DNA of 41,306 nucleotides, from positions 1-41,306 of IMG/VR virus record IMGVR_UViG_3300016263_000355; one strand, given 5' to 3'. This document shows, piece by piece, positions 9,901-28,900 of this stretch. This DNA is from a virus (lineage: Duplodnaviria; Caudoviricetes). The first letter of the stretch is position 1. Every line of letters starts with the position of its first letter. Below the pieces are notes generated by a model, which did no database searches, was not told the DNA's origin, and worked only from the letters and a program-made list of their open reading frames with translations. The translations under genes and the position numbers were made by a program.

Positions 9901-12900
9901 TGAGGCAGCTTGACTTGAATATGTCTTACTTTCCCAGATGCTGTATCTACCTCATAAGACTTAAGCTCACTTGATTTTTTAGATGTTGTAGGAGCTGTTC
10001 CAAAACTTGACATTTGGACTTTCATATCTCCAAAAGTCTTTTGTCTGATAAGGTTATTGTTTATAAGAGAGGACAAGATAAATTCTATCTTGGTCTTGTT
10101 TGCAAGTACATCAAGATTGAAAGTAGTGTTATTGATAGCCATATCAATTCCCATCCTGATATTCAAAGAAGCTCCTCTTTTTTCTGCTTCTCGCATAAGG
10201 ATCTCTTTGAATTTGATAGGGTCAGAAATCAAATAGCCTCCGTCTTTCTTAGTAACATTCAGTTTCTTAAGAAGACTTTCCATTTCTATTTTGGTAAGAT
10301 CTTCAATAGCATTATCCCATTGTTTACCAAGCTCTTCTGTATTTACTGTTTCTAAGTTACCAGTAGTGGAATTTACAACTCTAATGTTCTTGCCCTTACC
10401 TTTGATAAACATGTTAGAAAACAAAAGCTTTCTAAACTGAGTACCAAAAGTAACTTTATACTTGGATTCAGGAGCTATGTCTACCTGTATTCCAAAATAT
10501 TTATAATCAAGCTCTGAAGCTACAGGTTGAAAAGCGCTATTAATAGCATTGTTATCAGTAAGATAATTTTTATTGATAATGGCTCCTATTTTAGCTCCTG
10601 TCCCAAAAGTAGCTACTCCTACACTGTTATCCATCATCATTTTATTAAGCTGCTCAAGTTTGGTCCCTTTGATCATTCTAGGGAGAAGAGGTACCAATGA
10701 GAACTTAAGAAAAGTAGGAGTATAACTATTAGTAGTAGTCTGGGGACCAAAGTACTGAGGCTTAAGAGGTTGAAATAATTCTACTTCAAAAGCAGTCAAA
10801 GCTCCTCCTCTAAGTACTTTAGGATAAGCTCTGTCATGAGATACAGACCATTGACCAGATCTAATCAGAAATTCACGATATTCTGGAAGAGTGATATATC
10901 CTTGAGCATTAGCAAATTCAATGTTCTTATAAGGATCCCAAAAACTTTCAGGTACTTTGATACCTTCTTTTTTGAAAAAGGCTTTAGCATTTGCTATAAA
11001 TTCTTCATCATTAAGAATAGGATCTTCAAAGACTGCAATATTGAATTTACCATTAGGAGTTTTCTTATCAGCTCTTTCAGTTTGAGAAAGCCATTTATTC
11101 AAAGCTGGGTCTACAGAAACATTTCTTTTGGTACCAGTCAAACCGCCTACACGTTTAGGACCATCATTCTTAGCATGATTGTAAAAAGCCAAATCTCCTA
11201 AGAACAATTTAGACTGCTCAATAGAACCCATCAAATGTCTTAAAGTGATTTCCAAAGTGACATTATCAAAAGCTTCCAAAGTCATAGTACGCTTTATATC
11301 AGGGAATCTGGCAATCTTTGTAGAGATGCCATTATTCTTGAAAGTTGCACCATCTTTACTTTCAACAACCATTGTTTTCAACAAATGCTCTTTAAGGAGT
11401 TCTTGTTGATTAGCAATATACTGTTGGATACCTGCAGTAACATCAGGATCAGCTAATATGCTAGGTATGCTTTCTTTAGTTACTCTTGCAGGAAGAATGA
11501 TTCCTTTTTCCTGTAAATAATAAAAGGTCACAAGATTACCACCTTGTTCTTGGAACACTGCTATATCATTCCTATCACCTTCATTGAACATGGCTACTCT
11601 TTCCAACTCATCAGCAAGGTAACCTTTAAAAATGTTAAGAGCATCTTTTATGGAGGAATCCATGTTGATCTGGAATCCGTATTCCAGTTTCTTATCTCCT
11701 GCTCTCATCAAAGGAAATACATTGTTAAGAAGAGCATTGATATGGGTAACAGTAAGATCCCCCTCACTAAGATTAGAAGTGATTTCTCCTTGTTGTCCAG
11801 GTTCATTTATTTTCTGACCTTCCAAAACAACAAGTTTCAAAGCTCCTTGATTCTTTTGCAGGATCTTCTTCCAGATAGAATTCTTAGAATATACATCATT
11901 TTTCAAATGAGCCAAAGAATTTATACCCTTGGAATTAATCTCATTGACAATGTTAGACAGATAGTTATTCAAAGTGATACTATATACTGTCTCTCCTTCA
12001 GGATTCATATGACTCAGTTCAATGGCTTCCTTAGTGTAAGGGATATCAATAGCAGCAAGTTGGGAAATCCTACCTTTTACTGCATCAGCCATGAACATAT
12101 CATCAATACCTTCTTGAGTCTTTCTGCCAAAGTATTCAATGATTTTTGAAGTAGCCTCATTGACTATCTTTCTCTCTTCTATAGTATATTGATTAGCAGT
12201 CCTGGTCATAGGAATGCCGAACATTTTCAATAAGTACAGGTTCTGACCTGTGTCATTGGCATTATAAGGAATACGTGATCCTTGAGTAGTTAACAAACCT
12301 TCTGTAAGTATTTTGTCAAGAATATCTCTTTTGAACACATACTTTCCACCATCTAACTTATAAAAAGACCTATTAGAATCCACATCTTGTTTAGACTTGG
12401 CTTTCCAAATAGAAACCATTTTGTCTTTAAGAGATTCAGAAGTAGCATCTATTTGATAAATCTCTCCAGTTTCAGGAGAAATCATAGTCAAAAGATATTC
12501 ATTCTTGGTCTTAGCAAATTGCTGTACAAAAGCAAGTTGCATAAGCACTTCTGAAAGAGTAAGATTTTCTGAAAATCCTCCATCAGACATCTTGAGTTTA
12601 GCCATGAGTTCTTTCAAAGGAGGATACACAAGAGAAAGCTCATGCATCTTAAGAACCATGTCATCAAGTTCCAAACTACCTGCAAGCTTATCTTGCAAGA
12701 AGTTCATAGTATAATCGAAGTTTGCGATTTTAGGAACTCCAAAATAAGAAGAATTATTAGCTACAATTACTTGCTTGCTTCCTACTTGTTCAAATCTCTT
12801 ATCTGTCAAAGACAGCATCAAGAATTTGAGAGAGTTAGTCATGTTCTGCTTGGGACTGAACTTTACAGACTCAATCCAGTCAGGAGCATTAGGACCTTTC

Positions 12901-15900
12901 TCTTCAGTATCTTGATCTACAGAATCTTTATTGTTATCATTAGACTCTAACATAAGCCCAAACTGAGCCATGTAAGCCATGTGATTCTTGATGAATTTAT
13001 TTCTATTTGCAGGACTTGTGAATACAACAAGATTATCAAGATAACTGTTTCTAAATTCCACCCACTCTTCATTAGTGAACTTTCTGCCAAATCTTTGTTC
13101 AGCATCAGCAGGAGGGACATCTTTTTCCTGAGCACTCTTTACAAAATTCTTTCTGAATGTGGCTTTAATATCTTCAAAAGCCTGATTGTATTTGGCAGCA
13201 AGATCAATCTTATGCAGATTATTCAATACATCAATATCGAAATTATCTCTAAGTATGGAATTTATAAGGAAGCTTGTAAGAACCTGATTGGCATCTTCAT
13301 GGAAATCTATACTGAGATCTGTTACTTTGTTATAAGCCATAGTAGGTCTGGAAAGAACAGGCTTATTAGCATAGTTACCAGCTTTGATGTTTTCAAACAA
13401 AGCTTCTGCCATTCCTGGAGTATTACCTACTCCAATAAGAGCTTTTAAAAGATCTACGATTTTTTGGAAAAGACTTTTCATTACAGGAGGCAAATCAAAA
13501 TCTCCTGTAATCATATAGTTTCTGAAAGATTCTGCAAGTATTTCTTCAGCTTCTATTGCGCTTAACTTAGGTCTATTCAGTCTCTTACGAAGTTCATCAT
13601 AAAGTCTTTCTCTTTCAGAATTTTCAAGTAAGAACAAAGACACTTTGTGAAATGCTTCGTGATAAGTAGTACCAGGAGAAGCCAAGTCAGAAATCAAGAC
13701 TTTACCAGCTTGAGTTACTTGTCCTACAGCTCTACCTTGAATAAGACCTCTGATTCTTTTATAGTCATTTGCAAATTGAGGGAAGGTTTTTTTAAACCAA
13801 GCTTCCTCAGCATCAAGTTCAGCTTTAGTAGCTGACTGCTCATTTTGAAATAACTTGAAAGGACCTTTGTTATCTTCATCCTCTTCCCAAGGATTAGTGT
13901 CTACTCCAGTATCTCCTGATAAGATATCATCTGCTTGCTTTTCTGCAGACTCTTCTTCTTGTTCAGTAGTTTCTTCAGCAGCCTCTGCAGCTTCTGTAGT
14001 GAATGCAGGACCTTGATCAGTAGTAGCAAAACCTTCTTGCTTTTTAGTGGAAGCAGCTTGAGTAACAGGTTTATCTCCACCAATAAGATCAGGTGCTATT
14101 CTTAGCATCTCTTCATATTCAGCCAGAGGATCATCTTCTGATAAAGCTTCATCTTTTTGATAAGGAGCTTCTTGAGTATCATAAGGAGCTTCATCCTCAA
14201 CAGCTTGATCTTCAGCATATTCAAGATCTTCTTGCTCTCCTTCAAGAAGAGAATTAGAATCAAACTTGAGATATACATTCAAGAACTGTTGCTCAGCCAA
14301 AGGAGCAAGAGTCACTTTTACAGGAACTTGATCTTCAGTTCTTCCTTCAGAAGACATCAAGTAATGCTTATATGAAGGGTACTCTTTGTTATTCAGAGGA
14401 TCTGTAAAAGGCTCATTCTTATTCAATAGATACAAGTTCACATTGAAAAGCTTGCTTTGGAAAAAAGCCCTAAGCTCATCTGCAGGGATCTTGTCAAGGT
14501 CATAAGACTGACCATTGAATACAAATTTACCTTCTTTCTTATCAAGAAAAATACGCTTGGTTTTGAAATCTACCTTCTCATAATTGCCATAGTTAATCAA
14601 AGCTTTGATATTGTTTTCAGCTTGATATACAGCTTTTCTTTTAGATTCTTCAGGAGACTTTTCTCCAGGTACAAAGTTTTGAGCAATGGTGTTTACTTGC
14701 TGCATAAGAAAATCAACAGCACCAGGAATCTCTTCCATTGTAGGGAGACTCACAGGAACAACTTGATTCTTATGGCCTATGAGTACAAAACCTCTTTTAC
14801 CTGAAAGGTTACTGAAAATAGTACCTCCTATGTTCTCAGAGTCAGATCTTACTACAGTAATCTGTACATCATCTATCTCTTCAGCAGTTTCTACAAGTCT
14901 GCTTACTACATTACCAGTAGTAGCTCTACCTCTTACACCAGCACTTTTACCAGTTACTTTGAAAAACAGAGGAGCATCTTCTTCAGACATGCTTAGGAGT
15001 CTTTTCCTAATAGCTTCATATCTGGTGAACATGGCTTGTAAAGCCTCTTCACTGTAATTCTTATTATTAGTATATCTGCCTTCAGAAATCTCGTCAAAAG
15101 TAGGAGTCATGCCCATAGAAGTATAGACATAATCATCTCCTATTTTTATAGGATTACCTTTATAGTAAAGCACTAACAGAATAGTTTCAGAAGCTTTATA
15201 AGGACCTACATCTTTAAACTGTAAGGCTCTACCAAATGGATTGGTCTTTTGGGTCACAGGTCTCAACATAAATCCTTCAGCAGGATCAAGGTTCTCTGTA
15301 ACTGCAAACCACCTACGTTGATCAGGATTGTCTGTCAGAATCTCATCAGAAAATTGCCCATTTGGCAACACTAGCATGTTGTTACCCCTAGTAGCATTCA
15401 TAGCCCAGAAGATATCTCTTACAGGGCCACTTATCATTTCTCCTACACCCTCTTCAAATTCCTTATCAGTAAGGTTATCAGGTTCAAATACATTCCTAGT
15501 AGACTCTTTATTGGCTTTGGCTTCTGTAGTTTTCTTAGTAGCTACAGTCTTATTCAAGATCACATTGATCTTGGAAAAAGCGTCTTTTAATGCCCCCAAA
15601 GTATTGGAAGCAGCATCTATATTTCTAAGATCCTTAGCAGCATTGTTGGCATTCTCAGCTGAAGCCATGAATGTAGTATAAGATTTGGAAAGACTATCCA
15701 TCTCTGCCTTAGAGAGACTCAATTGTTCTTCCAGATCCTTAAGTTCTGTTTCAAGTAACCCTGCTTTTTCAATGATAGCAAGTACAAGATCAGGATTCCT
15801 ATTCAGCATTTCAGAAGCACGTTGTGCCAAAGCTGTCCTAGTCAATGGAGAAGCATCTCCATATCTCTTGTAAGCCCGTAAAGTTTCAAAATCTTCTCTA

Positions 15901-18900
15901 TAAAGATTCTGCACTATTTCTTCTGGAAGACCCATCAAGAATCTTTCAAAAGTATCAGCTTCAGAAAGACGTTGTCTTACTACTGCAAGTTCAAACTTTT
16001 TTCTTGTGATGATATCTTGAATAGCTTTGATAAGGTTATCCAAAGATCCTAACTTCTGGGTAATAGCCTCTGCTTTTACTCCATAGTCTTTAGCCATTCT
16101 TTCCAATTCAGTTATGGAAAACCCAGCTAATTTGTACATATCTTGAATAGCACCTTCTTCTATGGCTTGTAAGCTATCAAGTTTTTCTTGAGCAGTAACT
16201 TTAGGATCAAGAAGATATTCTTGGTACTCTTTCAAGAACCTGATATTATTATCAAGCTCTTCATAAGTCTTATTGATATTATCAAGTTGTTCTTGATAAA
16301 GATCTCTTAGAGCAATGGCATCATCAAGAAGTTTTTGGTATTCTTCCAGAGTATAGACTTTGCTATCTTTTGTAGTAAATCCTTTTCTAAGCTTACCGTC
16401 TTTGCTGACTTTATAACCTTGAAGCTCTTCTACTTTAGCAATAGCTTCCATAAGATTCTGCTCAACTTCAGCAGCTTCTCTGATAAGTCTAAGCTGGGTT
16501 TCATCATCAGTATCAATAAGGCTTTGAACAGCTTTCAATCTTTCAAGTACTGTTTTCTCACCTCTATATTGAGATTCTGGAACAGCTTTAGTGACATCCA
16601 TAAAAGGCATAGCATCCTTTATGTTTATCACTTTACCACTATTAAGTCCTATAAGGATATTAGGATTTACTTCTCCATTCTCATTTTCAGCAAATACAAA
16701 ATCATCAGTTACTGCATTAGGGCCTTCTCCAATAGTCTGATCTTTGAATACTTTTTGTTTATGATCATTATAAAATTGAGCTGCTTCCCTATCTTGCGCG
16801 TTAAAAGTCACATTAGCATCTTGATCATCTTTATCAGATTCATTCTTAGCTGCTTGTGCTGCAAGTTTTTCCTTCTCAATTTCAGAAGGAATAGTCATTT
16901 TATTTACTCTAATGTTAGAATCTTTTAGAGTATTTATAAGATCCTTTTTTCTATTAGTAAGAAGATTAAGTTCTTTTTCTTGCTCACTTCCTTTCTCAGG
17001 AGTTTCAAGTTCTTCTACAGGAGTACCTTCTCTTTTAGTATTTACATTCTCTTTGTAAATATTACCTTTAAGATCGGTGATCTTATTATTGATATTATCA
17101 ATAGAAGTAATAGTTTCTTTCTGAAGTACAGCTTCTTCAAAAAGTTGTCTTGCTACTTTTCTATTTGGAATCTCAAATCTAGAGTTAATCTGATTATAAA
17201 TCTTTTCATACTCTAAAGCTTTCTGCTTATATCTTTCAGCAATTTCAGTAGGAGTGACTATTCTACCTTCAGAATTTCTGAGGTCCTGACCCACTATACC
17301 TTTTTGTTTTGCAGTATCATAATCCAAAGAACCTATATCTTCAATCTTTTTGTAAAGATCTTCAGCTCTTCCTGCTTCAAAATGAGAGTAGGCCCAGTTA
17401 CCAAATCTAATATTATCAAGAGCCTTATAAGCTTCTTCATAATCATTGCTAAGAGCAGTTACCATTTCTTTTGAAAGGTAGCCATCTCTTACTTGATCAG
17501 TCAGCAGTCCTAAAATCTTGGCTTTATTCAGAGTAATCTTTCCAGTCTTCTCATCTTTGACGGTAAAGTCAGCCATGTTTTCTTTCAGGTACTCATTGTT
17601 TGTAAGTTTCTCCTGAAGATATTTAGCTTGTTCTCTAGTCTGTTTACCTGCTTGACCATAAGCTTGAGATACTCCACCGAACAATCCTCCTAGAATCATT
17701 CCAGCTCCCATAGCATCCCAACCTTCTTTTTTGGTAAAGCCGTCAAAATATTCTTTTAATACTCCTGTAACAGCATTATCTTCTACTCCTTCTACATATT
17801 TCTTATTAGCATACTCTTGCATTGCATACTGAAGTCCTTCTTCAAGTATACCTTCACTAAAAGCATTTTTACCAGCTTGTTTTGCAAAAGCTTTTCCAAA
17901 GCTAGGTACTGCTACTTCTAAAGCTCCAGTCTCTCCAAGTCTTAACAGTTTGCTTTTGGATTTAGAAAAAGTCTTAAACCATCCACTATACTGTTGATAA
18001 TCCAGAGGAGTCAACAACATATTCAATCCTGTCACAGCCATAGCAGCTTGAGCTGCTTTGTTTCCTGCTTCCTGCTCAGAGTAGCCTTGATCCACTAAGC
18101 TATTGAAAACTTGATTATAAGTCTGTTTACCCTCTGCAATAGATTCTACAGTTCTAGAAGCAGTTGCAACAGTTATATTGTTTGCAAGCTGCATATTTTT
18201 TGCAAGATTGCCTTTTACTAAAGACGTGCCTATCAATTCAGCTTTAGCTGCTTGATTACCTGCAGCTATTGCGGATTCTAATTCAGCAATCTTGGCAGCT
18301 TCTGTTGCTGCAGCTGCTTCTAATCTTGCCCCATAAAGAGCTTTAGTAGCTGGGCCTAAAAGTTTAGCGGCCCCCATACCAGTAAGATAGGCTGAAATCA
18401 TAAAAGCAGCTCCATCTACCATGTCATTTGTCCAGAAATCAAGATCTGTTACAGCCCTATGCAGAAAGTTTTTACGTTGATCTGCTCTAGTATTATAAAC
18501 AGGAAAAGCTTCTTTAATAGCTTCTTCCATAGAATCAAACAGTCCACTAAGAGGCGTAGCTCCAGAAACATCTTCATCTAAAGCTAAAGATGCTGCACTG
18601 TTCATGATTACATCTCCTACACTGCTTACTCCTGACAAAAGTTTTGTACCTGTAGTAAGTCCCAATCTAGCTATACCATTTCCTAGACTAGAGTACCAAG
18701 ATTGAGCTTCTGCTCTTACATCTTCAGCTTCTCCTTGAGACCAACCTGCAAATTTTGGTAATTCTTGGAAGTCTTCTAAAGAAGTAGCATCTATAGGAGT
18801 AGTGGCAAATGAAGGTACTTGTGGAGTAGATAATCTTCCAGTTCTTGTAAAATCTGCAAGTTCGGTAGATAAGTTTAACTCTTTCTGTGGAGCAGAAACA

Positions 18901-18956
18901 GGTAAACCCGTCATAGGATCTATACCAACATAATTAGGAGCAAGTTTTTTTGCCAT
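6912..18956 (-). CDS. Giant virion-packaged RNA polymerase of crAss-like type (4014 aa), fused with N-terminal ejection/coiled-coil region and zincin domain
   Basis: GYRIPTQ...GGSDFDIDK catalytic motif (DFDID at 9693-9707), typical of phi14:2 gp66/crAssphage RNAPs. HEAFH zincin motif at 13647-13661. Gly/Ala-rich hydrophobic N-terminal segments. Acidic linker ~13870-14250. Confidence 0.92.
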   Translation of the reverse strand: MAKKLAPNYVGIDPMTGLPVSAPQKELNLSTELADFTRTGRLSTPQVPSFATTPIDATSLEDFQELPKFAGWSQGEAEDVRAEAQSWYSSLGNGIARLGLTTGTKLLSGVSSVGDVIMNSAASLALDEDVSGATPLSGLFDSMEEAIKEAFPVYNTRADQRKNFLHRAVTDLDFWTNDMVDGAAFMISAYLTGMGAAKLLGPATKALYGARLEAAAATEAAKIAELESAIAAGNQAAKAELIGTSLVKGNLAKNMQLANNITVATASRTVESIAEGKQTYNQVFNSLVDQGYSEQEAGNKAAQAAMAVTGLNMLLTPLDYQQYSGWFKTFSKSKSKLLRLGETGALEVAVPSFGKAFAKQAGKNAFSEGILEEGLQYAMQEYANKKYVEGVEDNAVTGVLKEYFDGFTKKEGWDAMGAGMILGGLFGGVSQAYGQAGKQTREQAKYLQEKLTNNEYLKENMADFTVKDEKTGKITLNKAKILGLLTDQVRDGYLSKEMVTALSNDYEEAYKALDNIRFGNWAYSHFEAGRAEDLYKKIEDIGSLDYDTAKQKGIVGQDLRNSEGRIVTPTEIAERYKQKALEYEKIYNQINSRFEIPNRKVARQLFEEAVLQKETITSIDNINNKITDLKGNIYKENVNTKREGTPVEELETPEKGSEQEKELNLLTNRKKDLINTLKDSNIRVNKMTIPSEIEKEKLAAQAAKNESDKDDQDANVTFNAQDREAAQFYNDHKQKVFKDQTIGEGPNAVTDDFVFAENENGEVNPNILIGLNSGKVINIKDAMPFMDVTKAVPESQYRGEKTVLERLKAVQSLIDTDDETQLRLIREAAEVEQNLMEAIAKVEELQGYKVSKDGKLRKGFTTKDSKVYTLEEYQKLLDDAIALRDLYQEQLDNINKTYEELDNNIRFLKEYQEYLLDPKVTAQEKLDSLQAIEEGAIQDMYKLAGFSITELERMAKDYGVKAEAITQKLGSLDNLIKAIQDIITRKKFELAVVRQRLSEADTFERFLMGLPEEIVQNLYREDFETLRAYKRYGDASPLTRTALAQRASEMLNRNPDLVLAIIEKAGLLETELKDLEEQLSLSKAEMDSLSKSYTTFMASAENANNAAKDLRNIDAASNTLGALKDAFSKINVILNKTVATKKTTEAKANKESTRNVFEPDNLTDKEFEEGVGEMISGPVRDIFWAMNATRGNNMLVLPNGQFSDEILTDNPDQRRWFAVTENLDPAEGFMLRPVTQKTNPFGRALQFKDVGPYKASETILLVLYYKGNPIKIGDDYVYTSMGMTPTFDEISEGRYTNNKNYSEEALQAMFTRYEAIRKRLLSMSEEDAPLFFKVTGKSAGVRGRATTGNVVSRLVETAEEIDDVQITVVRSDSENIGGTIFSNLSGKRGFVLIGHKNQVVPVSLPTMEEIPGAVDFLMQQVNTIAQNFVPGEKSPEESKRKAVYQAENNIKALINYGNYEKVDFKTKRIFLDKKEGKFVFNGQSYDLDKIPADELRAFFQSKLFNVNLYLLNKNEPFTDPLNNKEYPSYKHYLMSSEGRTEDQVPVKVTLAPLAEQQFLNVYLKFDSNSLLEGEQEDLEYAEDQAVEDEAPYDTQEAPYQKDEALSEDDPLAEYEEMLRIAPDLIGGDKPVTQAASTKKQEGFATTDQGPAFTTEAAEAAEETTEQEEESAEKQADDILSGDTGVDTNPWEEDEDNKGPFKLFQNEQSATKAELDAEEAWFKKTFPQFANDYKRIRGLIQGRAVGQVTQAGKVLISDLASPGTTYHEAFHKVSLFLLENSERERLYDELRKRLNRPKLSAIEAEEILAESFRNYMITGDFDLPPVMKSLFQKIVDLLKALIGVGNTPGMAEALFENIKAGNYANKPVLSRPTMAYNKVTDLSIDFHEDANQVLTSFLINSILRDNFDIDVLNNLHKIDLAAKYNQAFEDIKATFRKNFVKSAQEKDVPPADAEQRFGRKFTNEEWVEFRNSYLDNLVVFTSPANRNKFIKNHMAYMAQFGLMLESNDNNKDSVDQDTEEKGPNAPDWIESVKFSPKQNMTNSLKFLMLSLTDKRFEQVGSKQVIVANNSSYFGVPKIANFDYTMNFLQDKLAGSLELDDMVLKMHELSLVYPPLKELMAKLKMSDGGFSENLTLSEVLMQLAFVQQFAKTKNEYLLTMISPETGEIYQIDATSESLKDKMVSIWKAKSKQDVDSNRSFYKLDGGKYVFKRDILDKILTEGLLTTQGSRIPYNANDTGQNLYLLKMFGIPMTRTANQYTIEERKIVNEATSKIIEYFGRKTQEGIDDMFMADAVKGRISQLAAIDIPYTKEAIELSHMNPEGETVYSITLNNYLSNIVNEINSKGINSLAHLKNDVYSKNSIWKKILQKNQGALKLVVLEGQKINEPGQQGEITSNLSEGDLTVTHINALLNNVFPLMRAGDKKLEYGFQINMDSSIKDALNIFKGYLADELERVAMFNEGDRNDIAVFQEQGGNLVTFYYLQEKGIILPARVTKESIPSILADPDVTAGIQQYIANQQELLKEHLLKTMVVESKDGATFKNNGISTKIARFPDIKRTMTLEAFDNVTLEITLRHLMGSIEQSKLFLGDLAFYNHAKNDGPKRVGGLTGTKRNVSVDPALNKWLSQTERADKKTPNGKFNIAVFEDPILNDEEFIANAKAFFKKEGIKVPESFWDPYKNIEFANAQGYITLPEYREFLIRSGQWSVSHDRAYPKVLRGGALTAFEVELFQPLKPQYFGPQTTTNSYTPTFLKFSLVPLLPRMIKGTKLEQLNKMMMDNSVGVATFGTGAKIGAIINKNYLTDNNAINSAFQPVASELDYKYFGIQVDIAPESKYKVTFGTQFRKLLFSNMFIKGKGKNIRVVNSTTGNLETVNTEELGKQWDNAIEDLTKIEMESLLKKLNVTKKDGGYLISDPIKFKEILMREAEKRGASLNIRMGIDMAINNTTFNLDVLANKTKIEFILSSLINNNLIRQKTFGDMKVQMSSFGTAPTTSKKSSELKSYEVDTASGKVRHIQVKLPHWFKDVFGRDVDIKSLDKRLLNIVGYRIPTQDYSSMDVLEVVEFLPPEQGNVVIIPENIPAKGGSDFDIDKMNLLIPNYKITYDTSEALSFVNTSLKGFFRGVAVKPIASIEALQDILTRQKDGDSLTSSESRAVLYYKEFMRSAPFKLSYVESSENSKEGKQNKLIEIATQVLTSPDNYKYLIRANTNKTLLGLSEEIAGKPEKAPKPKGKMLEFVNNIKTALAFWTGKGGVGVAALHNSHHSLSQKVNLYVPAGQVLSDVNTGFTRKSIFNKDIPVKMDIPLLINFNHNQAEDGGISFADEMDVNNDNRISDLLAEFINAYVDIAKDPFILKLNAGIDTANIWLMLIRAGVNVREIAYFMSQPIIKDYFDMKRSYKSQFLEARKDEVTNLQILREVLKKYELNETDLYIGGDIKTEASLKANMTKGAENKSFNGSLIKDLLVYEKLANDLSDIQKITTFDTAGVGKTRWQSRALLRKVDSVLEKTVFKNAGKILDDTLIKSFYNVGKMAADVYNEGYVLDLPKAENVREFMFEAVQDVTDVKEQGRLLSYMENEFLIYLFSKQKVGNIQLNTYIKKLFTGENSLAHRLGRLKQDPDFQNNFVISNLIPIINPNRTSTDNIRFFDSAFNSYQADLLFQGFEQLFNAPNDNVRVFASDLMVLMLLQGGPNLSPVSLYGHVPNNLFIPLLSKAVIGQYKNSSVDTSSFGDEFYMNNWHKNEFVPWIPVRNTEEGEAVVYRSSRNYGKPYVKTSFKDKNGNKIVKLYKLQTSNGEMSVYKEVPKRGNGFYLREYFGNTSDSVIKDNVLVAKPSTKTSKIKTKTKISPVEKKLSRADSKVRAEITKRLPEVISDTARKYLSKEQYKSRIATQYIGEGSKNSSTDRYKILYQEYGIANTGKYSSEDIVWVSSNGKRTGRVNPIVGDVLQGVYKNVDKVIKAKGKIIMDTAEHLENTKSYNVGELALAVYLNNNGYVRNDETGMWSPKDDFSGQDDTLNCN

Positions 18957-18964: not shown

Positions 18965-19399
18965 TTAATAATCAAATTTTTTCAAATGTGATAACCTTCT
19001 TCTAGCACTCTCTTGAGCGTTAGCAGGTCTTTCCCAATTCACAGTAAACCAAGTACTGGCTTCCTCAGGACTTTTGAAGTTAGTATTTAAATAAGTTTGT
19101 GTAGAATCTTCACTTAAAGCATAATCAATCTGTGACTGCCAATTGACTGCCCAGTTAGGATCATATTCTTGTAAATTTTGGAATCTGTTAGCGTGATGCT
19201 GAAACAATCCTCCGCTAGTATAAACTCCAGTAGATTGGTCTTTATCTCCTAAACTTCCTGGATTAAACCCAGACTCATGCTGAATATTAGCCAACATTCC
19301 TTTAGCATGAATAGGAGATACACCTCTCTCTAAAAGATAGTCATATACATCTCTAGGATTTACTCGGACTCCTGTACCCCCTGAAGTTTGTCCATTCAC
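18965..19399 (-). CDS. Phage tail lysozyme domain (Phage_lysozyme2-like), probably expressed as a -1 frameshift extension of the upstream gene
   Basis: AKGMLANIQHESGFNP...GLFQH...QIDYALSE...SPEEAS.WF...WERP motifs. The only upstream start is a GTG buried in a hairpin. Confidence 0.85.
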   Translation of the reverse strand: MNGQTSGGTGVRVNPRDVYDYLLERGVSPIHAKGMLANIQHESGFNPGSLGDKDQSTGVYTSGGLFQHHANRFQNLQEYDPNWAVNWQSQIDYALSEDSTQTYLNTNFKSPEEASTWFTVNWERPANAQESARRRLSHLKKFDY

Positions 19400-19420
19400 T
19401 CCAAAGGGGGTTACTTTTTT
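19365..19420 (-). promoter_or_regulatory. Putative programmed -1 ribosomal frameshift cassette (slippery heptamer plus hairpin/pseudoknot)
   Basis: In-frame A_AAA_AAG (19420-19414) immediately before the TAA of the 833-aa ORF. Stem ACCCCCU..GGAGU/ACUUC.AGGGGGU (19411-19376). The -1 frame is open into the lysozyme ORF. Confidence 0.8.
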
Positions 19421-21912
19421 CCTGAGTACTGGTTATAAAGCTGACCGTGTTTGTTGATAGCACTACTCAAATCAATAATACTATTGAAATGTTCTGTATC
19501 ATGCATACCTGTTTCAGGATTTACAGGTACTCCAGGAATTCTAGATCTATAAGTCAAGTCATAACCTGATTGATCGTTACCACTTATATAGACTTCTTGC
19601 ATTCCAAAGTTTTCAAACACTTGCTGAATCTTAATGTCTGAAGGATCTACTTCTCTTACAGCCCCTGCCCCAACATTATTATAAGGCATGCTTTCAAGTA
19701 CCGCTCTTACAGAAGATACTGCTTCAGCAGTTCCAGGATTCAAACTCATATTATTAAGAATGGTTTTATTGAAATCCTCTTGGTTAGAAGGCCTAATCAA
19801 TACTTTAGTACCTTCATAATCTTTATCAGTAGATTGTAAATTTCCTATCCACCAGAATCCAGAATCTCTATCATAGATCAATCCTTGGGTTTCAACTCCA
19901 TGATTTGCTGCAAATGATCCTTTAAATAAAGTGCTACCAGAAAACATTTTACCTTCAGACGCTCCAGGTTCTACCCAGTAATATACATAGTTATCAATTG
20001 CAGAACCTTTTTGCCAAACTTTTAGTCCTTTATCAGTAACTGTCAATTTACCTTCAAGATCTTTAGTTATAGCTTGTTGAATCTTAGCAAGGTAAGGAGT
20101 GTCTTTATCAGTAGTAGAAGGCAAATCATAAGAGGTAATCTTATACTCATTCAACTGACTTTGTGCCCAAAGTTTTTCATACTCTTGTTGAACCTTTTTA
20201 CTCTGTCCTCCTGCAAAACTTTCTTGATCATATGCATAGTTATTCAAGACTTTAAATCTAGGATCTTGGGATTTGTCTCTATACAATCTTTGTTTTACTG
20301 CTGGAGTAAGGATACCTCTGCTAAAAGCGAGTTCATTTTCTTTTTTGTTTTTTACAGAAGGAGCATTTTGAGGCTCATCTTCATACTGCCAAAAAGGCTC
20401 TTCTCCAAGACCTTGATCTAGCTTTTCATTCTCATAAGCATCATCAAACATAGTTTCAATAGTTTGCTTTACAAGTAAATCAAATTCTTGTTTTTCTTTT
20501 CCAGTAAGTTGGTTATATTTTTCTACTTTATTAACAAACCCTTCAAGTTCTTTTCTGTTAGGATTATAGCCAGGAGCTTTAGGATCATTACTTCCAAGAA
20601 TCTTGTCATTAACATTTTTAATAGCTTGATTATATCTTTGAATTTGTTCCTGCTCTTCTAGACCTTGTCTATTGTATTCCATTACCATGCTTCTGTATTC
20701 ATTCCTAGCTTGCTGTTTATTGGCATCTGGGAATTTAGATACAAACTCATCTTCTGTTACTCCTATCTTATAGGAGACTTTATCATTCTTGGAATCTACA
20801 GTACGAGTAATTCTTAAATTTTCAGGAGTATAATCTTTAAGAGTAATACTTGTTTGCTGTAATCTTTTGAAAGGTTCTGTTACAAACGCAGGATCATTAC
20901 CTTTATATTTTCCAGCTTTAGCTGCTACAGCCTCTTGAGTCCTTTCTTCTTCTGTAGCAATAGCAAATGGGAAAGTACCTTTCTCAATAAAAGGCACTCC
21001 AGCACCTACAGATGAAGGAGTTCCTGAACCACCATCTGCTGCAGCTCTTTCATTAATTTGATGAATCTGAGTATCTCCTTTTTCTTCTCTGCCCCAAAGA
21101 GGTTTAGAAAGTTCAAGCAGTACTTTAGAAATATCATCTTTATTAAACCTATCTTTTTGACCTCTAAACTCAAGATCTGCTCTATACCATCTATCTTCTG
21201 GAGCTCTTTGCTGAAGAATGGTATTACTTAAACCGTCAATAGCATTTTTAAATGTAGCGGCATCTTTGACATAGGTTTTTACACCTTTTGAATCAATCCA
21301 ATATTTATTGCCGTACTCATCTGTTGTAGTCTGAACTTGATTACCATTCCTATCTTTTGGAATAACTGTAGCTACAACTTCTTTAAGTTGATTAAAATAT
21401 CTAGTGTTGAAATCTGCATAAGGTTGATAGCTCAAACTACCTGCATAAGCAGTTTTGTTTTGTTTGAAGTTATAACCTCCTCCAGGCAATGGTTCTAAAT
21501 AACCTGCCATAGTTCCTCCAGGCACATTCAGCTGAGCTTCTTTGTTAGCCATATAAGGAGCTAGGATCTTATCATAATACTCTTTATTATTAAGAATAGT
21601 CTTAACATCGGTATTACTTAAAAAGTGAGCTTTGATCCTCCTAGCATCTGAAATGGTTTGTTGGATAGGAACCTTACCCAAATCATTAGTTACCTTTTCA
21701 AAAGCTTGGTTATATTGAGTACTGATATCTGAAGCCCACTTTTCATTTCCAGGGGCTGGATTAAGAGCAGCCAATAATCCTGCAGCCTCATCAAGAGTCT
21801 TAGAAGCAGCATCTGCTTTTTGGTCTTGGTAAGCTTGCGCTTTAAGAAGAAAATCAAAATCAAGTGGCTCTAATTTTAAGTCAGGCCATTTAGTATAGGG
21901 GTTGATATTCAT
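19411..21912 (-). CDS. Virion cargo/ejection protein (833 aa), cysteine-free
   Basis: Long ORF between cargo genes and the RNAP. The N-terminus (NPY....EPLDFDFL.KA...Q) resembles crAss-like ejection proteins. No Cys seen. Confidence 0.7.
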   Translation of the reverse strand: MNINPYTKWPDLKLEPLDFDFLLKAQAYQDQKADAASKTLDEAAGLLAALNPAPGNEKWASDISTQYNQAFEKVTNDLGKVPIQQTISDARRIKAHFLSNTDVKTILNNKEYYDKILAPYMANKEAQLNVPGGTMAGYLEPLPGGGYNFKQNKTAYAGSLSYQPYADFNTRYFNQLKEVVATVIPKDRNGNQVQTTTDEYGNKYWIDSKGVKTYVKDAATFKNAIDGLSNTILQQRAPEDRWYRADLEFRGQKDRFNKDDISKVLLELSKPLWGREEKGDTQIHQINERAAADGGSGTPSSVGAGVPFIEKGTFPFAIATEEERTQEAVAAKAGKYKGNDPAFVTEPFKRLQQTSITLKDYTPENLRITRTVDSKNDKVSYKIGVTEDEFVSKFPDANKQQARNEYRSMVMEYNRQGLEEQEQIQRYNQAIKNVNDKILGSNDPKAPGYNPNRKELEGFVNKVEKYNQLTGKEKQEFDLLVKQTIETMFDDAYENEKLDQGLGEEPFWQYEDEPQNAPSVKNKKENELAFSRGILTPAVKQRLYRDKSQDPRFKVLNNYAYDQESFAGGQSKKVQQEYEKLWAQSQLNEYKITSYDLPSTTDKDTPYLAKIQQAITKDLEGKLTVTDKGLKVWQKGSAIDNYVYYWVEPGASEGKMFSGSTLFKGSFAANHGVETQGLIYDRDSGFWWIGNLQSTDKDYEGTKVLIRPSNQEDFNKTILNNMSLNPGTAEAVSSVRAVLESMPYNNVGAGAVREVDPSDIKIQQVFENFGMQEVYISGNDQSGYDLTYRSRIPGVPVNPETGMHDTEHFNSIIDLSSAINKHGQLYNQYSGKK

Positions 21913-21945: not shown

Positions 21946-24900
21946 TTATCTTCTATAACGTGATTTTCTCCAAGCTGCAATTCCTCCTTCTGTTGGATCA
22001 AATAGAGGCCTGTTTAACTGCTCTTCAGTCATAAAAGTAGGAGCAGTTTTTTGCTGAGTCTTATCAGTAATAATAGTACCAGGTAAACTGCTTTTTCCTG
22101 TATAAGTATTGCTCATATTATCCAAATAGCGTTTCATAGCTAAATTGTTTACATACTGATTTTGGGCACCTGCTGCTGTATAAAGTCCTTTGAAAATACC
22201 CTCCATTTTATTAGCTTCTCCTCTATCTTTATAGTCTTGAGCTGTTACTCCCATCTGGTTATTATACTGCAAAGCTGCTCTCTTATTTGCTTCAAATTGA
22301 TCAAGCTGTTGAGATCTATAATTCTTTTCTCTCTCACTGACTTCAGATATTGCTCTGCTCTCATCTAGGTCTGTTGCAGACAAGAATCTTCTAAGATTTG
22401 TAGGATTTGCTTGCTTTGCTGCATAAATACGTGCAAGAGCCTGATCTTTAACAGCTCTTTTAGCTTCAGTATAATCTACTAAATTAGGAGCTGCTACAGT
22501 CATAGGATCCCATGAAAGCTCAGATACTGGAGTAAATGCAGAAGTAAGAGCTTCTATTGCTCCTAAACCCATACCAAGATTTCTAGCAGTTCTAATAGGT
22601 CTACAAATGCCTGAAGAACAATCATGTTCTACTCCATTAATTATTCTACTCATGCCCTTCTTTACTCTCTGCATTAAATTTAAATTAGATTTACTAGAAG
22701 GAGTTCCAGATTTTTCAGATAGATCAAGTTCTATTGTAGGAATATCAGTATTAACACTACTAGGTAAAACAGTTCCAGTAGATTGATCATAATAATCTCC
22801 TCTAGCATCATAGCGTTCATCTGGGCTAGATGGTTCTCTTGTAGCTGCATTATATGTACCAGATTGAGAAATTGTAGGATATCCTGATGAAGTATTTTCA
22901 GTTATTCTATATTCAGGACTATATCCAGGAGCATAAGAAGCTAAAAAATCATCAGCACTAGAACCTTGTAATCCAAAATAACGTCTAGCTGTTGGAGGTG
23001 TGTATTTTTCAAACTTAGGTAAAGTTGGAGTAGGCATACGACTTAATATGCTAGCCACTTTAGGATCTGAAGGTCTAGTTCTAGCAGAAAAATCTGCTAA
23101 AGATTCATCTTCTCTTCGAGGCTCTTGCATTAAATTTGGAGAAGTAATTCTACTCATCCATGCATTATAAATATTACCAGGGGAATTAGGATTTATAGAA
23201 AAATTTTGTTTATCTAATTTTCCTACTAAATTAAGATCTGATAATTTCTGATCTCCAGAGTAATCAAAATAGTCTCCACGTAATTTAGGATTTGTAGTAT
23301 TAGCATAGTATGAAGGTTCTAAGTATCCTGGAGTTATTTCAGAGTTTAGATCATAACCACTTGGATAATATTTTCCTGGTAAGTATACTTCAGCACGAGG
23401 ACCTGCACCAAGCCCAAAACTTCTTTCTAACATAGAATTCACAAAGAAAGGCATTTCTTGTTCTTTTCCATATCTATCATATGTAATACTACTTTGAATA
23501 GCTTCTTCTTCAGGAGTCAAAGGAGTATAATTAACCACTGAATTTACATCATATCTTTTTCTTCCAGACATACTGGTAATCATACCATTTTTAGCCATAG
23601 CTTTAAATGTCTTAGCCAGATTGTATCTACGAGAACCAGGAGGGCAAGAACTAGAACCAAACTTAGATCCAGTACATACACCTTCAGTACCACGTCTCTT
23701 AATAGACTTAGTGGCTTTTTGAATCCAGCCGCCTTTTTTATAAGTCATCATTGAATCTAGACTTTCAAGATTTATTCTATCTTGGTTACCCATAGGCATT
23801 CCTCCAGAAGCATATACTCCTCCTACTTGGTTACCAGTCATTCCACCATAGGCCATACCTTGGTCACCCATTCCAAAGGAGTAGTATCCACCATCTCCCA
23901 TTTTTCTAGATTTTTTCATTTCTCTATCTTGTTGCTGAGAGACAAGACTTCTCTCAATTTGTTTTCTTTTAATCAAACCTGCTTCTAGGTATTCTTTAGT
24001 TCTGTTTTTAGGAATCACAATAAGTCCTTCAGGAGCATCATCATTACCAAGAGGATTCTGACCTTCAGAAGGATGTGGAGGTCTGCCAACATAGTTCTTG
24101 ATGATCTTGCCATTAATAACAAGCAACTCACCTTTTTTAGCATTAGGTCCTGAACCTTCACTAAAGTTAGCACCTTCAACATTAATAGGCACTAAACCAG
24201 CTTGTCCTCCATCAGCCATTTTTACATAGCCGCCCATTCTATTAAGCTGAGATTGAAGTCCAGAACCTGGATTTGCATAAATATTTACATTTGGCATAGT
24301 ATTTCTTTTTAAAGAAGATGTCCTAGGTCCATATCTGGAGCTAGCCTGGAAAGTGTTTTCTCTTACATTAGAACCTTGGTTATACAAACCAAGTCCTATA
24401 TTTGCAGCAGTGCCTGCAATTTGAGCGGGGTTAAAATCTCCCTCACTAATATCTTGAGTAAGTCTAATACCTTGTGAAAGATAAGGAGAATATTTAGTGT
24501 ATTTATTTAAATTTGTAGTAAACTGTTGTACTTCTTTGCTAGGTTGTCTAGGAGTATCAACTGGACTAGGAGTATAAATAGGAATATTACCCATTCCTGC
24601 TCCAAATGTAGGTGTAACTGCGGGAGCAGAGGGCGCAGACATTGTATAAGTAGGAACAGTTGTACTAGGAGCAGTAGGAATATTAGCAGCACTTTGCATC
24701 CAAGTATTAGAAGCTGCTGGAGATGCTGCAGTCAATCCAGTAACTTCTGCAGTTCCTTGAGTAGGAATTGTAGATGGAGCAGCTGCATTAAAAGCTCCAG
24801 CGCCATATGCCGTTCCTACAACAGATCCTGCAATAGGTAAAGCTGTTCCTATAATTTGAGCTGTTTTATTATCAGGAGCTGCAAAATTTTGAATAGCTTG

Positions 24901-25956
24901 TCCTGTTCCTTTAGATGCTGAAGCAATACCAGCAGGTATAGCAGTTGGGTTAATAATACTGGCTCCCACAGCTCCAGTTGCAGTTCCTACACCTCTGACA
25001 GCATCTAATTTTCTTTGTTGTTCAGCACTAGTTTTATTATCAGCAATATCTGTTAAAGCTTTGTAACCAAGATCTGTAATAGGATCTGTGGCTCCAAAAG
25101 TAAAAGTATCTACAGCTCCTTCAAGAATTCCATAAAGTGTTGAGCCTAACCCTCTCCAAAAATTAGTTTTATTTCTTGGTTTTGAAGGACCTGCCCAATT
25201 ATAAATAGGAGTATCAGCCTCATAAGCTGTCCCATATTTATTCATGTAGTTTAAATCATCCTGAGTAAAAGTTCCATCATTTTGATCAGAAGTCCAACCT
25301 CCTGCATAATACATTCCTCTTCTTTTAAAAGGAGTATTAATGGTACCATCAAAATTCATGTTACCCATAGTGTAACCACCATGTTTCTTACCAGCTCTTA
25401 CATTTACTCTATTAGCAAGAGCTTGATTCATAAGATAATCCTCTGGCTTTGAAAGATTTAAAACTCTTACAGATTCTCCCGCAGGTCCACTGCTTTGAAT
25501 TTCAGATCTTTCTGGAGTACCATAAAAACCAGTAAATGCTGGACCACTTTGTCTTTGGTAAGACATCATGTCTGGAGTAGCGGTATAATTTTCTGCAAAA
25601 TTGTTAAAATTACCATTTTGCTGAGATGACATTTGAGTCATGGTACTTCTTACAGGATATTCTCCATCTGTTTCTCCACCATCACCTTGTTTAGCTCTAA
25701 TTTTCTTTTCCTGCCTAAGCATCTCTTTAGTAGGCTTTCTACCAGAACCTCTATTAGCTCTGATATTATCCCAAAGACCTCTTCTAGAATAAGAGCCATC
25801 TTTGCGTTTAAGCATACCACCTTTTTTATTTATAGAACGCTCTTGCAAACTTTCAGCAAACTCAGCAAGTTTACCATTAGCTTGAGCTTCAAAAGCAGCA
25901 GCTTCCATACCATCAGGTACAGTAATTAATTCTCCTTTAGGACCTTTTAATTTCAT
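21946..25956 (-). CDS. Mosaic cargo protein (1336 aa) with GG-delimited modules, Gly/Ala-rich membrane-like segments and a Pro/Thr/Ala linker
   Basis: Hydrophobic GVGTATGAVGASII / IIGTALPIAGSVVGTAYGAG segments. INVEG...GELL...PH module resembling crAss-like cargo proteins. About 10 xxxGG/MAKNG motifs. Confidence 0.75.
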   Translation of the reverse strand: MKLKGPKGELITVPDGMEAAAFEAQANGKLAEFAESLQERSINKKGGMLKRKDGSYSRRGLWDNIRANRGSGRKPTKEMLRQEKKIRAKQGDGGETDGEYPVRSTMTQMSSQQNGNFNNFAENYTATPDMMSYQRQSGPAFTGFYGTPERSEIQSSGPAGESVRVLNLSKPEDYLMNQALANRVNVRAGKKHGGYTMGNMNFDGTINTPFKRRGMYYAGGWTSDQNDGTFTQDDLNYMNKYGTAYEADTPIYNWAGPSKPRNKTNFWRGLGSTLYGILEGAVDTFTFGATDPITDLGYKALTDIADNKTSAEQQRKLDAVRGVGTATGAVGASIINPTAIPAGIASASKGTGQAIQNFAAPDNKTAQIIGTALPIAGSVVGTAYGAGAFNAAAPSTIPTQGTAEVTGLTAASPAASNTWMQSAANIPTAPSTTVPTYTMSAPSAPAVTPTFGAGMGNIPIYTPSPVDTPRQPSKEVQQFTTNLNKYTKYSPYLSQGIRLTQDISEGDFNPAQIAGTAANIGLGLYNQGSNVRENTFQASSRYGPRTSSLKRNTMPNVNIYANPGSGLQSQLNRMGGYVKMADGGQAGLVPINVEGANFSEGSGPNAKKGELLVINGKIIKNYVGRPPHPSEGQNPLGNDDAPEGLIVIPKNRTKEYLEAGLIKRKQIERSLVSQQQDREMKKSRKMGDGGYYSFGMGDQGMAYGGMTGNQVGGVYASGGMPMGNQDRINLESLDSMMTYKKGGWIQKATKSIKRRGTEGVCTGSKFGSSSCPPGSRRYNLAKTFKAMAKNGMITSMSGRKRYDVNSVVNYTPLTPEEEAIQSSITYDRYGKEQEMPFFVNSMLERSFGLGAGPRAEVYLPGKYYPSGYDLNSEITPGYLEPSYYANTTNPKLRGDYFDYSGDQKLSDLNLVGKLDKQNFSINPNSPGNIYNAWMSRITSPNLMQEPRREDESLADFSARTRPSDPKVASILSRMPTPTLPKFEKYTPPTARRYFGLQGSSADDFLASYAPGYSPEYRITENTSSGYPTISQSGTYNAATREPSSPDERYDARGDYYDQSTGTVLPSSVNTDIPTIELDLSEKSGTPSSKSNLNLMQRVKKGMSRIINGVEHDCSSGICRPIRTARNLGMGLGAIEALTSAFTPVSELSWDPMTVAAPNLVDYTEAKRAVKDQALARIYAAKQANPTNLRRFLSATDLDESRAISEVSEREKNYRSQQLDQFEANKRAALQYNNQMGVTAQDYKDRGEANKMEGIFKGLYTAAGAQNQYVNNLAMKRYLDNMSNTYTGKSSLPGTIITDKTQQKTAPTFMTEEQLNRPLFDPTEGGIAAWRKSRYRR

Positions 25957-25960: not shown

Positions 25961-28900
25961 TTAATCTATTAGTTGCCAAGTGCTAGTTGTTCTGTAATTT
26001 GTTTTGGGCACAGTCACAGTTTTACTTGCACTTTTCCCACTGTTAGCATCTTCTTGTAAGATATTTATGTATCTAGAGTTATTCCAAACTCTAGTTGGGT
26101 AATTGCCTCTGGAATTCCATTTAGCAGGAAGATTTTTCCAAAGATCTTTCTTTTGCTCACCAGTAAGCTGCTCATTGTATCTAATTGCTAAAACAGCTAC
26201 AGTACCCATAGCTGCTTTTTCAGGATCTAAGAAATCTTTGTTAGAAGTAATTCCTAATTCACTAAGAGCTTTTTTCTCTGTAGCATTCAGATAACCCCAT
26301 TTAAGTTGGGTAAGTCCAACACTTTCATAATTCCCATCTCTAGAATAAGTAGTATACTTGCTATCGTAATCAGGAGAGCTTGCGTCATAATTAATTCCTA
26401 AAGACTTAAGACTTTTACTTGCAAGTTTATTTAGAGCTTTTGTAGCATTTACAATTGGAGTGTGGGTATCTCCAAAATTAGACTCAGTTCCATAAATACC
26501 AAAAGCCATTTTAGCTAACTCGTTATATATATCTCCGTTAATCTTAGCAGCCTTCATTACTTTCTGCTTATTTGATTCTAAAGATTTTATAAACGGAAGA
26601 GTGGTTCGATGAAGTTCATTCTCATCATCAAAATCATAAAATTGAAAAACATTCTGCATAAATGATTTTTCATTGAAGTTTACTTTAATAGGTTTATAAT
26701 TCAAAGTAGCTTCAGTCTTATTGACTTTAGGATTTTGAGATTTGAATATAAGTTTACCATTAGAGATTTGAAACTTGTTATTAGGATCATCAGGCAGTAC
26801 ATAAAGTTTATCCCCCTCATTATAACCTTGTTTGTACAACTGTTTTAGATCATAGCATAATCCGTTGATGCAGCCATTAGACAATCTATTATTAGCAGGA
26901 TCAGTGTCTCTAATTTTAGCAGTCCTATCTCCAAAGCTGCTATGCATAGCCATAGGCACACTGATACCTTTTTCATTCTTAAAATTCCAAGTAGGAGCAT
27001 TTGAATAATGAGGGTCTGCAGCACTTGCCCCAGCTACTGTATATACTCCAGCTCCAGTCATTCTGTTACCCTTTTCCCAAAGAACCTTATTATCTTTTAC
27101 AACTGTATAAGTTTGCTCATCTCCTACATTCATACCAGTACCAACATTATAAGAAGCTATTGCTTTGTCACCTTGGTACAAATGGATCTTACCTTTACTT
27201 TTGTCCAAAATCAAATATTGGTCATTGGAACCTTTATGATAATTTCTAATGATTTCAGCTTGATCCATTTTATTGATCTCATCCTGTCTCTTTTTTACTT
27301 TTTCCCACTCTTGATATTCAGGCTCAAGTTTGACAGTGACTTTATCAGAATAAACAGATCCTACCATTTTATTCTGCTGTTCTAATCTTGATTTAGTTTT
27401 AGGAGTATTCAATCCTGCAGCAGTCAAAGTATCTTGAGATGGATTGAATTTTTCTCCAGCCAGATTAGTTCCATATTTCCTACCTTGATATTCAAAGATT
27501 TGATTAGGTCCTAATCTTTCTCTGGCAATTTTAAAAGCTTCGTTGAAATCTTTAGGTGCAGAAGCTTGAGCTGCAGCATCTAGTTGAACAGGAGATGGAA
27601 AATTAGTAGGAGCAGGTGCTGAAGCATAATCATTGAATTCTCCTGCAAGCAATCTCTTTCTTAAAGCTAAATTACTTTCAGCAGTACCTGTAGTAAGATT
27701 GGAAGCTTTAGCTTGATTCCAAGGTGTATTTGTAACAGATTCCCAAACTTTATATACAGGCATGTTATTTAATCCTGTAGATCCTCCTTCAGCATACATA
27801 GGTCTAGATACTTGACCACCTTTTTTATAAAGTTTTTCAAGTTTAAAATTAGGTACTTCAATCATGAAGCCGTTTAAATTTTCATTAAATACTGTCCTTG
27901 CTTTTACTGCTTTTAAATTAGAGGGCATTTTAGAATTCAAAAATTGCACAGCTTCCTTAGCATCATTTTGATTATTAAACAAAAGAATATTGTTATTTTC
28001 AAAAGCTTTTGCTTGATTAGGTAATTTAAAATGAACAGCTGCAGAATTTAAAGGAACATGTTGAGCAGGATAAACTTGAAATTTATCACGATTTCTAGTT
28101 CTTCTTATTAAAGAATTCCAAGAATCCATACTTAAACTTCCAGTAGGAGGTTCCATTATAAAAGATCCTTTAGGAATTTCTTTCTCCAATCTTTTAAAAG
28201 CCTTACCAGCTTCTATTGGATCTTTCATATAAGCAGAAAAATAATAAGCATGTTCTCCGTTAGGCAAAGTATGACTTTTTAATTCAATACGTTGCTCAGG
28301 ATCAATTTTAGAATTAACTCTAGCTAAAGTTTTTTGAAATCCTAATGCAGATTCTCTGCTATACCTTCCTGGAATTACATATTCTAATGTTTCACTTACA
28401 TCTTCTTGACCTGTCCAAATTGGTGATTTTTTTGATCTAGTTCTAGTTGAAAGACCTTTTTCTAGTCTTAAACCTGTACTTGTAGAAGGAGTATTAATAG
28501 GATCGCCAAAAGTAATAGTACTAGCATCTTTTTTTGCAGGAGACCCTATTAAGCGCATTTCTTCTTTAGCTTGAGATAAAGAACTAAGTTCAGGAAGAGG
28601 ATCTCCTACTTTATAAGTTTTTTCACTAAACGGAGTAATAAACTTATATCTATTCATTACTGCATCATTTATAGTGGCATTTAAATAATTTTTAGCTTCA
28701 CCTAAATCAGTAACTTTCATAGGTCTCCCTACTTCTTTACTTTTTATAGAACTTGCCCATTCTAGTAATTCACTTGGTTTACCATATAAAGACTGTAACT
28801 CCATTATTTCTGCTTTTACTTTTGCAGCTTCTGCTACATAAGTAGGATTATAACTTACAGAAATAGGTTGTAAAACTTGTTGCCCTGGATATCCAATAGA

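Follow-up and report, generated by a model that had tools for sequence, protein, structure and literature searches.

A predicted -1 frameshift at the end of a cargo-type gene of a crAss-like phage, with a predicted wall-hydrolase domain behind it

Introduction

Is the lysozyme reading frame that follows the gene of an 833-amino-acid (aa) virion cargo-type protein in a freshwater crAss-like phage a small gene of its own, or is it appended to part of the copies of that protein by ribosomes that slip one base back at the gene end? The question is raised by a stretch of 41,306 nucleotides (nt) of IMG/VR record IMGVR_UViG_3300016263_000355 (Duplodnaviria; Caudoviricetes), hereafter the window, a linear virus record that is 45% complete and in which Crassvirales tail genes were found (crAss_MUZ, E 4e-138; CrAss_Ring_1, E 2e-42; Ring_2, E 8e-38). 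The original prediction, made from the sequence of the window, held that a -1 frameshift adds a muralytic domain to part of the cargo copies. On the basis of sequence comparison, we consider that a programmed -1 frameshift at the A_AAA_AAG end of the 833-aa gene, appending an enzyme domain, is the probable answer (roughly 85%), a core claim that found support in every comparative test run.

The slippery gene end and its -1 frame

The 833-aa open reading frame (ORF; 21912-19411, minus strand) terminates with the codons GGA AAA AAG TAA, and the elements of the junction are the following.

19411..21912, minus strand: 833-aa virion cargo-type gene, zero-frame product ending Gly-Lys-Lys (from the ORF list, gene order and weak homology)
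19414..19420, minus strand: slippery heptamer A_AAA_AAG in zero-frame phase, with the X_XXY_YYZ pattern (read from the sequence)
19411..19413, minus strand: zero-frame stop TAA immediately 3' of the heptamer (read from the sequence)
18965..19414, minus strand: -1 frame extension of 149 residues, a Gly/Thr-rich linker and then a lysozyme-like domain
18998..19354, minus strand: PF18013 Phage_lysozyme2 domain of the phi29 gp13 N-terminal type (Pfam E 2.7e-18)
19397..19399, minus strand: GTG taken as the lysozyme start by gene callers, in the hairpin arm
19377..19408, minus strand: predicted 3' stimulatory hairpin of 11 base pairs (bp), 19408-19398 with 19387-19377, 5 nt after the heptamer, -14.6 kcal/mol
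19365..19394, minus strand: pseudoknot pairing of the original prediction (19394-19390 with 19369-19365), possible, not supported

The heptamer had been placed directly before the stop of the 833-aa ORF, and it lies there, at 19420-19414 (minus strand). The -1 frame runs uninterrupted from 19432 until it ends at 18967-18965 (minus strand) on a stop, with the 144-aa GTG ORF inside it, and reading this frame confirms the anticipated continuation into the lysozyme: a tandem -1 slip at A_AAA_AAG gives a product of 982 aa. In-frame copies of A_AAA_AAG occur five times in the 11,287 codons of six long genes of the window, and a long -1 frame follows only one of them, with 150 codons versus 2-10 at the other four. 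Those four lie at 16950, 16002, 27296 and 35761 (minus strand). Of the heptamers tested in E. coli, A_AAA_AAG shifts most readily (PMC5009743).

The appended domain scores 66.9 bits against PF18013 (cut-off 28.2) and its profile matches PDB entry 3CSR, the N-terminal domain of phi29 gp13, with E 2.4e-9. It thus belongs to the same family, and the invariant Glu42 of the 144-aa ORF (19276-19274, minus strand) aligns with gp13 Glu45; this glutamate we take to be catalytic. The phi29 protein is a virion-associated wall-degrading enzyme. It differs in being a tail protein made by normal translation that also has a second domain, a peptidase, whereas here the domain would be carried on a cargo protein by way of a frameshift.

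The downstream hairpin

The two arms of the hairpin that had been proposed are present as written, and the part of that proposal which calls for refinement is the register of its stem. The pairing of ACCCCCU with AGGGGGU begins just 2 nt past the heptamer, and a stem with so short a spacer, starting at 19411, is not supported; the 11-bp register sits at standard spacing, and 19408-19407 is the most likely start of a usable stem. The stability of the 35-nt stretch starting 5-7 nt past the heptamer (-14.6 kcal/mol) is equalled by one of 600 random coding stretches of the window. When compared with shuffled sequences, the originally proposed fold of 19360-19413 is unremarkable (z -0.98), while the hairpin alone gives z -3.0. 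The GTG at 19399-19397 is located in the 5' arm of the hairpin, that is, inside the stem as had been described.

An H-type pseudoknot had been put forward as a further stimulator. The loop and its downstream complement exist as written, yet a match of at least 5 bp to the hairpin loop is found in 36% of 5,000 random 25-nt coding stretches. The predicted folds at L144 and L152, two of the distant loci described below, are hairpins without a free loop for such pairing, and among strain variants of the window one keeps the end pair of the pseudoknot (U-G to U-A) and another breaks it. The pseudoknot was therefore discarded as a chance-level match that is not seen in the L144 or L152 folds.

Recurrence of the signal with other predicted enzymes

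Conservation of the gene end was followed among protein homologues, in distant loci for which DNA is at hand, and in close strains. Five of six homologues at 33-52% identity have a Gly-Lys-Lys C-terminus, and the sixth appears cut short (2.9-kb contig). A profile search gave 44 proteins; of 47 in hand, 45 were counted, leaving aside the cut P0003 and a 73-aa N-terminal piece. GKK, GK or KK ends are present in 22 of these 45, the window's own protein included, and none of 163 unrelated fetched proteins ends in GK or GKK. Among family members of at least 700 aa (22 with that of the window) 18 end in GK, GKK or KK, two are extended in frame and two do neither. Such an end is rare in the shorter members (3 of 22 with GK or KK; 100-699 aa, within P0180-P0212), and the cassette is therefore tied to the long form of the protein; one 64-aa C-terminal piece of the family ends GKK. 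The in-frame fusions that the original prediction had suggested looking for do exist: P0196 (974 aa) and P0202 (990 aa) read on in frame, past the point at which related proteins terminate, into a linker and a lysozyme-like domain.

DNA was obtained for a distant branch only, homologous to the family of the window over about 300 N-terminal residues (hhalign 99.7%; about 22% identity). Seven loci were found in it, of which six are evaluable, L153 being cut by the contig end; L146 and L147 duplicate the contigs of L142 and L141, and the weak matches L148 and L149 were left aside. In all four distant loci tested, the next gene is a homologue of the 4014-aa gene that follows the junction in the window. 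The heptamer, the stop, the hairpin and a hydrolase-like -1 frame are kept in five of the six. The gene ends on A_AAA_AAG in L141, L142, L144 and L145 and on G_GGA_AAG in L152, TAA or TAG directly follows the heptamer in all five, and a hairpin lies 5-6 nt past it, of a stability that is equalled by 10, 3, 0, 0 and 5 of 600 background stretches for L141, L142, L144, L145 and L152, respectively. In all six signal-bearing loci, the window being the sixth, folding predicts base pairs at positions +7 to +15 past the heptamer, with one to three pair types each; the pattern is suggestive and is not a covariation test, because each sequence was folded to its own minimum.

The -1 frames of these five relatives have 169-199 codons and start with a low-complexity linker, and the predicted enzymes behind the linker are diverse. 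In L141, L142 and L145 the domain is lambda-lysozyme-like, a label based on a Foldseek match (1AM7, prob 0.90, E 0.05) and on PHROG endolysin matches (E 7e-12 and 5e-7); in L144 it is NlpC/P60 (E 2e-7) and in L152 of a transglycosylase/endolysin type (E 1e-20). Ahead of codon 68, which is past the conserved Glu motif (41-43), the -1 frame of L145 is without ATG, GTG or TTG.

Close strains of the window were inspected for the assembly indel that could mimic a frameshift. The junction is bridged by contigs from seven of eight freshwater or unlabelled runs and no insertion or deletion is listed there; run X1 is a possible source of the record, X5 has no cover at the junction and the overlap of X4 is borderline, and six bridging runs from five studies remain without X1. 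Thirteen of 19 strain substitutions are synonymous in the -1 frame, none produces a stop, and three of the six others fall in the linker, a pattern that speaks for selection on a coding -1 frame. Near-identical strains have no substitution in 19420-19378, which is not significant (about two expected).

One variant contig, record 12 of run X9 (depth 7; window 19310-19423), shares the lysozyme start region and has a different sequence upstream of it. Its heptamer is A_AAA_AAA, its stop is a TGA overlapping an ATG of the -1 frame, and the register is kept (30 letters, by eye). ATA takes the place of the GTG, two U-G pairs of the stem have become C-G, and one G-C pair at the top is broken. Such a contig suggests that the end of the upstream gene was exchanged recently, or that the lysozyme is drifting towards a start of its own.

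Genome position of the 833-aa gene

The neighbours of the 833-aa gene were compared with the genes of phage phi14:2 and of crAss001.

21946..25956, minus strand: 1336-aa C1-like cargo gene, upstream (family-alignment profile matches phi14:2 g069, E 1.4e-5 among six proteins)
6912..18956, minus strand: 4014-aa virion RNA polymerase gene, with a g067-like N-part and a g066-like catalytic part (phi14:2 matches)

The 4014-aa gene starts 8 nt past the lysozyme stop, and its protein matches g067 and g066 of phi14:2 (E 8e-16 and 4e-59) with a DFDID motif at residue 3084. Because the flanking proteins match g069 and g067/g066, the 833-aa gene, located between the C1-like gene and the first RNA-polymerase-associated gene, likely occupies the position of C2 (crAss001 gp46, phi14:2 g068). 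The order of muzzle, cargo and RNA polymerase genes is the same as in crAss001, where C1 (gp45) and C2 (gp46) were found in virions by mass spectrometry (MS) and are proposed to form an ejection channel (PMC10172136). According to its record, g068 is MS-detected; it differs from the gene studied here in ending without a slip site and abutting g067. A Foldseek search with the model of the 833-aa protein gave crAss-like matches at low TM-scores, including a 593-aa structural protein of phi14:2 (E 1e-3) that may be g068 or g070, both of 593 aa, and found no fold match in the PDB. The label of ejected cargo would thus be a tentative one, drawn from gene order and weak homology.

Other features of the window deserve mention. 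The g067-like and g066-like parts are joined in one ORF in the 4014-aa protein (6912-18956, minus strand). The 1594-aa protein (2119-6903, minus strand) matches phi14:2 g065 and contains a PD-(D/E)XK nuclease-like domain at residues 451-576. Between the muzzle and C1-like genes, a protein of 1845 aa (25961-31498, minus strand) gives a weak match to YkuD (L,D-transpeptidase-like) at residues 1427-1557, with E 8.5e-4, under the Pfam cut-off; going by this match, the region is possibly a second wall-active virion domain. A separate gene for an M15-type, endolysin-like peptidase is located at 40272-40721 (minus strand). No lysozyme domain of Pfam was found in the 1336-aa C1-like protein of the window, and general domain scans of this partial record turned up no terminase, portal or capsid gene. 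The PF18013 family occurs also in frame inside other long proteins (P0008, P0016 and P0076). The domain seems to move between cargo genes, because P0008 and P0016 resemble C1-type cargo proteins.

Weighing the explanations

Several observations weigh against a frameshift reading, or narrow what can be built on it. By eye, no Shine-Dalgarno-like stimulator is evident 5-16 nt upstream of the site in the six loci. L141 and L142 are close kin, so that the five signal-bearing distant loci amount to about four lineages. An ATG is present 7 codons ahead of the Glu motif in L141 and L142, and either before the domain or in its early part in L144 and L152; the ATG overlapping the stop in the X9 variant would likewise permit re-initiation there. 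The sixth evaluable locus, L143 (5998-8094), ends Gly-Lys on GGT AAA TAA with neither a hairpin nor a -1 domain; since its codons are not slippery, a GK end alone does not prove a slip site. Neither scans with the 833-aa protein nor scans with alignment A1 of viral, metagenome and genome contigs found DNA of the 33-52% homologues, and because of this their codons and downstream frames are deduced from the protein ends. Among 157 viral loci with this lysozyme clade, 80 were kept and none has a slippery junction. The family profile, finally, matches g068 weakly (full-length E 0.07, domain E 5e-4 among six proteins). As for L143 itself, the next gene starts 4 nt on, and the locus makes a natural negative control.

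Further searches gave little on either side. A scan of genome contigs with alignment A3 and a tblastn search against annotated phages returned no match, and a search with the single lysozyme ORF returned no viral locus. The exact junction motif was found in 60 viral loci, none homologous to either protein. In the 80 kept loci the lysozyme stands within longer ORFs, behind its own ATG, or is cut by the contig end, and a set of 120 longer proteins with the lysozyme contains no fusion to this cargo family. Weak P0007 matches to P0086, P0088 and P0090 (E 4e-4 to 0.06) were dismissed as helical noise.

The main rival to the frameshift is translation that begins at the GTG itself. The lysozyme would then be a small gene in its own right, read either from GTG 19399 or by ribosomes that re-initiate past the cargo stop, and translationally coupled to the cargo gene, with the hairpin unfolded by the ribosome that reaches the end of that gene. 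The GTG is in frame 11 nt past the stop and ahead of the whole Pfam domain, gene callers choose it, and 4-33 nt is a normal distance between the genes of this operon; the TGA-ATG overlap of the X9 variant fits a separate gene, as does L120, where a lysozyme of this family begins on its own ATG in a TGATG overlap. Such a gene, however, leaves unexplained why GKK, GK or KK ends and the heptamer persist at about 22% identity, and it is hard to reconcile with L145, which has no start before the conserved Glu motif, with the replacement of the GTG in the X9 variant and with the existence of in-frame fusions. Moreover, among 14 starts examined the GTG is the sole non-ATG, its start region is the most structured, and the A at -3 that is present at 10 of the 13 others is absent from it. 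In Bacteroidota an A at -3 marks starts. The GTG at 19399-19397 is likely not the main start, and a separate gene seems to us an improbable account of the locus.

The hexamer of A at the site (A7 in the X9 variant) brings up transcriptional slippage, a route used by Thermus dnaX, in which RNA polymerase would add an A within the run and the longer mRNA would be read normally (PMC5009743). Against it, the G_GGA_AAG of L152 has no long run, the heptamer is always in X_XXY_YYZ codon phase, and the hairpin is 3' at ribosome spacing, whereas a slippage stem forms in the nascent RNA behind the hybrid (PMC5009743); we hold this route to be very unlikely. The in-frame fusions in the family and a break that lies in a homopolymer would also agree with a formerly fused domain cut off by a frameshift mutation and now decaying, or with an error of assembly. 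The absence of an indel in the bridging runs, the 13 of 19 synonymous substitutions without a stop in the -1 frame, and the recurrence of the same split and signal in distant lineages with different domains largely refute both.

Proposed mechanism

With the programmed -1 frameshift as the preferred reading, we propose that the gene yields two products, a plain cargo-type protein and a minor 982-aa form with a predicted peptidoglycan-cutting domain. At the gene end, with the ribosome stalled against the hairpin, both Lys-tRNAs would shift their pairing by one base, from AAA AAG to AAA AAA, and the adjacent stop probably adds a pause at the slip site; a second Lys-tRNA in the host would make slipping less frequent. 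Both forms would be packed in the head in the manner of the crAss001 cargo proteins and extruded at infection, when the few enzyme-bearing copies would open the host peptidoglycan for the ejection channel. On an evolutionary scale, the slip site and hairpin would form a fixed socket, the linker and enzyme behind it being exchanged between lineages.

Comparison with known frameshift systems

At the level of the signal the locus resembles E. coli dnaX, which combines A_AAA_AAG with a simple 3' hairpin of about 11 bp whose stem strength tracks the efficiency of shifting; some bacteria, too, have the zero-frame stop immediately behind the site, and there the shifted product is the longer of the two (PMC5009743). 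E. coli dnaX differs by its 5' Shine-Dalgarno element, of which there is no evident counterpart here, where moreover a phage virion gene is extended by an enzyme domain. The upstream element is not obligatory, as cso2 does without one (PMC5009743).

Among phages, a share of a virion protein gains a C-terminal domain by frameshifting in T7/T3 gp10B, in the capsid of Lactobacillus A2, and in the capsid and major tail proteins of Listeria A118/A500/PSA, and phage Ig-like domains are found in or out of frame, as are the hydrolase domains here (PMC5009743). Those capsid and tail cases concern outer proteins with display-type extensions, whereas the present one concerns an internal cargo-type protein and predicted wall hydrolases of four families. 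With lambda gpG/gpGT the locus shares a conserved -1 site at the 3' end of the upstream ORF, which in lambda sets the ratio of short to long product (PMC5009743). The lambda G and GT proteins are non-virion chaperones of a long tail, whereas this phage has a tail of the crAss-type ring/muzzle kind. L152 uses G_GGA_AAG, the same heptamer as the lambda site. A tail-chaperone frameshift was discarded for the window itself: the gene encodes 833 aa, lies between cargo and RNA polymerase genes, and has neither the position nor the homology of a chaperone. Ejection proteins of the T7 gp16 type carry a transglycosylase domain, and in T7 gp16 the enzyme is in frame.

The original prediction knew of no description of such a frameshift in crAss-like cargo genes, and none was found in the literature covered here, which excluded supplements and subscription papers. 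In the main text of the crAss001 paper the words 'frameshift', 'lysozyme' and 'peptidoglycan' do not occur (PMC10172136). In the available parts of the other sources, PMC7886860 mentions frameshifts solely for disrupted RNA polymerase genes of Zeta, bioRxiv 10.64898/2026.08.21.746148 makes only a general mention, and the main text on PRFect (PMC10885494) is without 'crass' or 'lysozyme', although it lists lysins among the genes known to contain a frameshift.

Implications for crAss-like phages

Taken across lineages, the data incline us, on odds a little better than even, to view the conserved frameshift cassette with which the second cargo gene ends in environmental crAss-like phages as a plug-in socket, into which at least four unrelated hydrolase families have been swapped, and through which the dose of enzyme per virion would be tuned to none, partial or full. 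With similarly guarded leaning, the steps of this dose series would run from no signal, through A_AAA_AAG, G_GGA_AAG and A_AAA_AAA, to the in-frame fusion.

If this is true, the socket would be the source of the wall-breaching activity that is still missing from the crassvirus ejection machine and that gene callers overlook; annotation misses these wall-cutting frames because several of them lack a usable start. The locus thereby points to the site of the wall-cutting activity in part of the order Crassvirales. To the chaperones, capsids and tail tubes in which phage frameshifting is known, internal cargo proteins that gain an enzyme would be added, and the loci together (no signal, three heptamers, an in-frame fusion, and four enzyme families) would offer a compact natural series in which to study the enzyme dose of an ejection machine.

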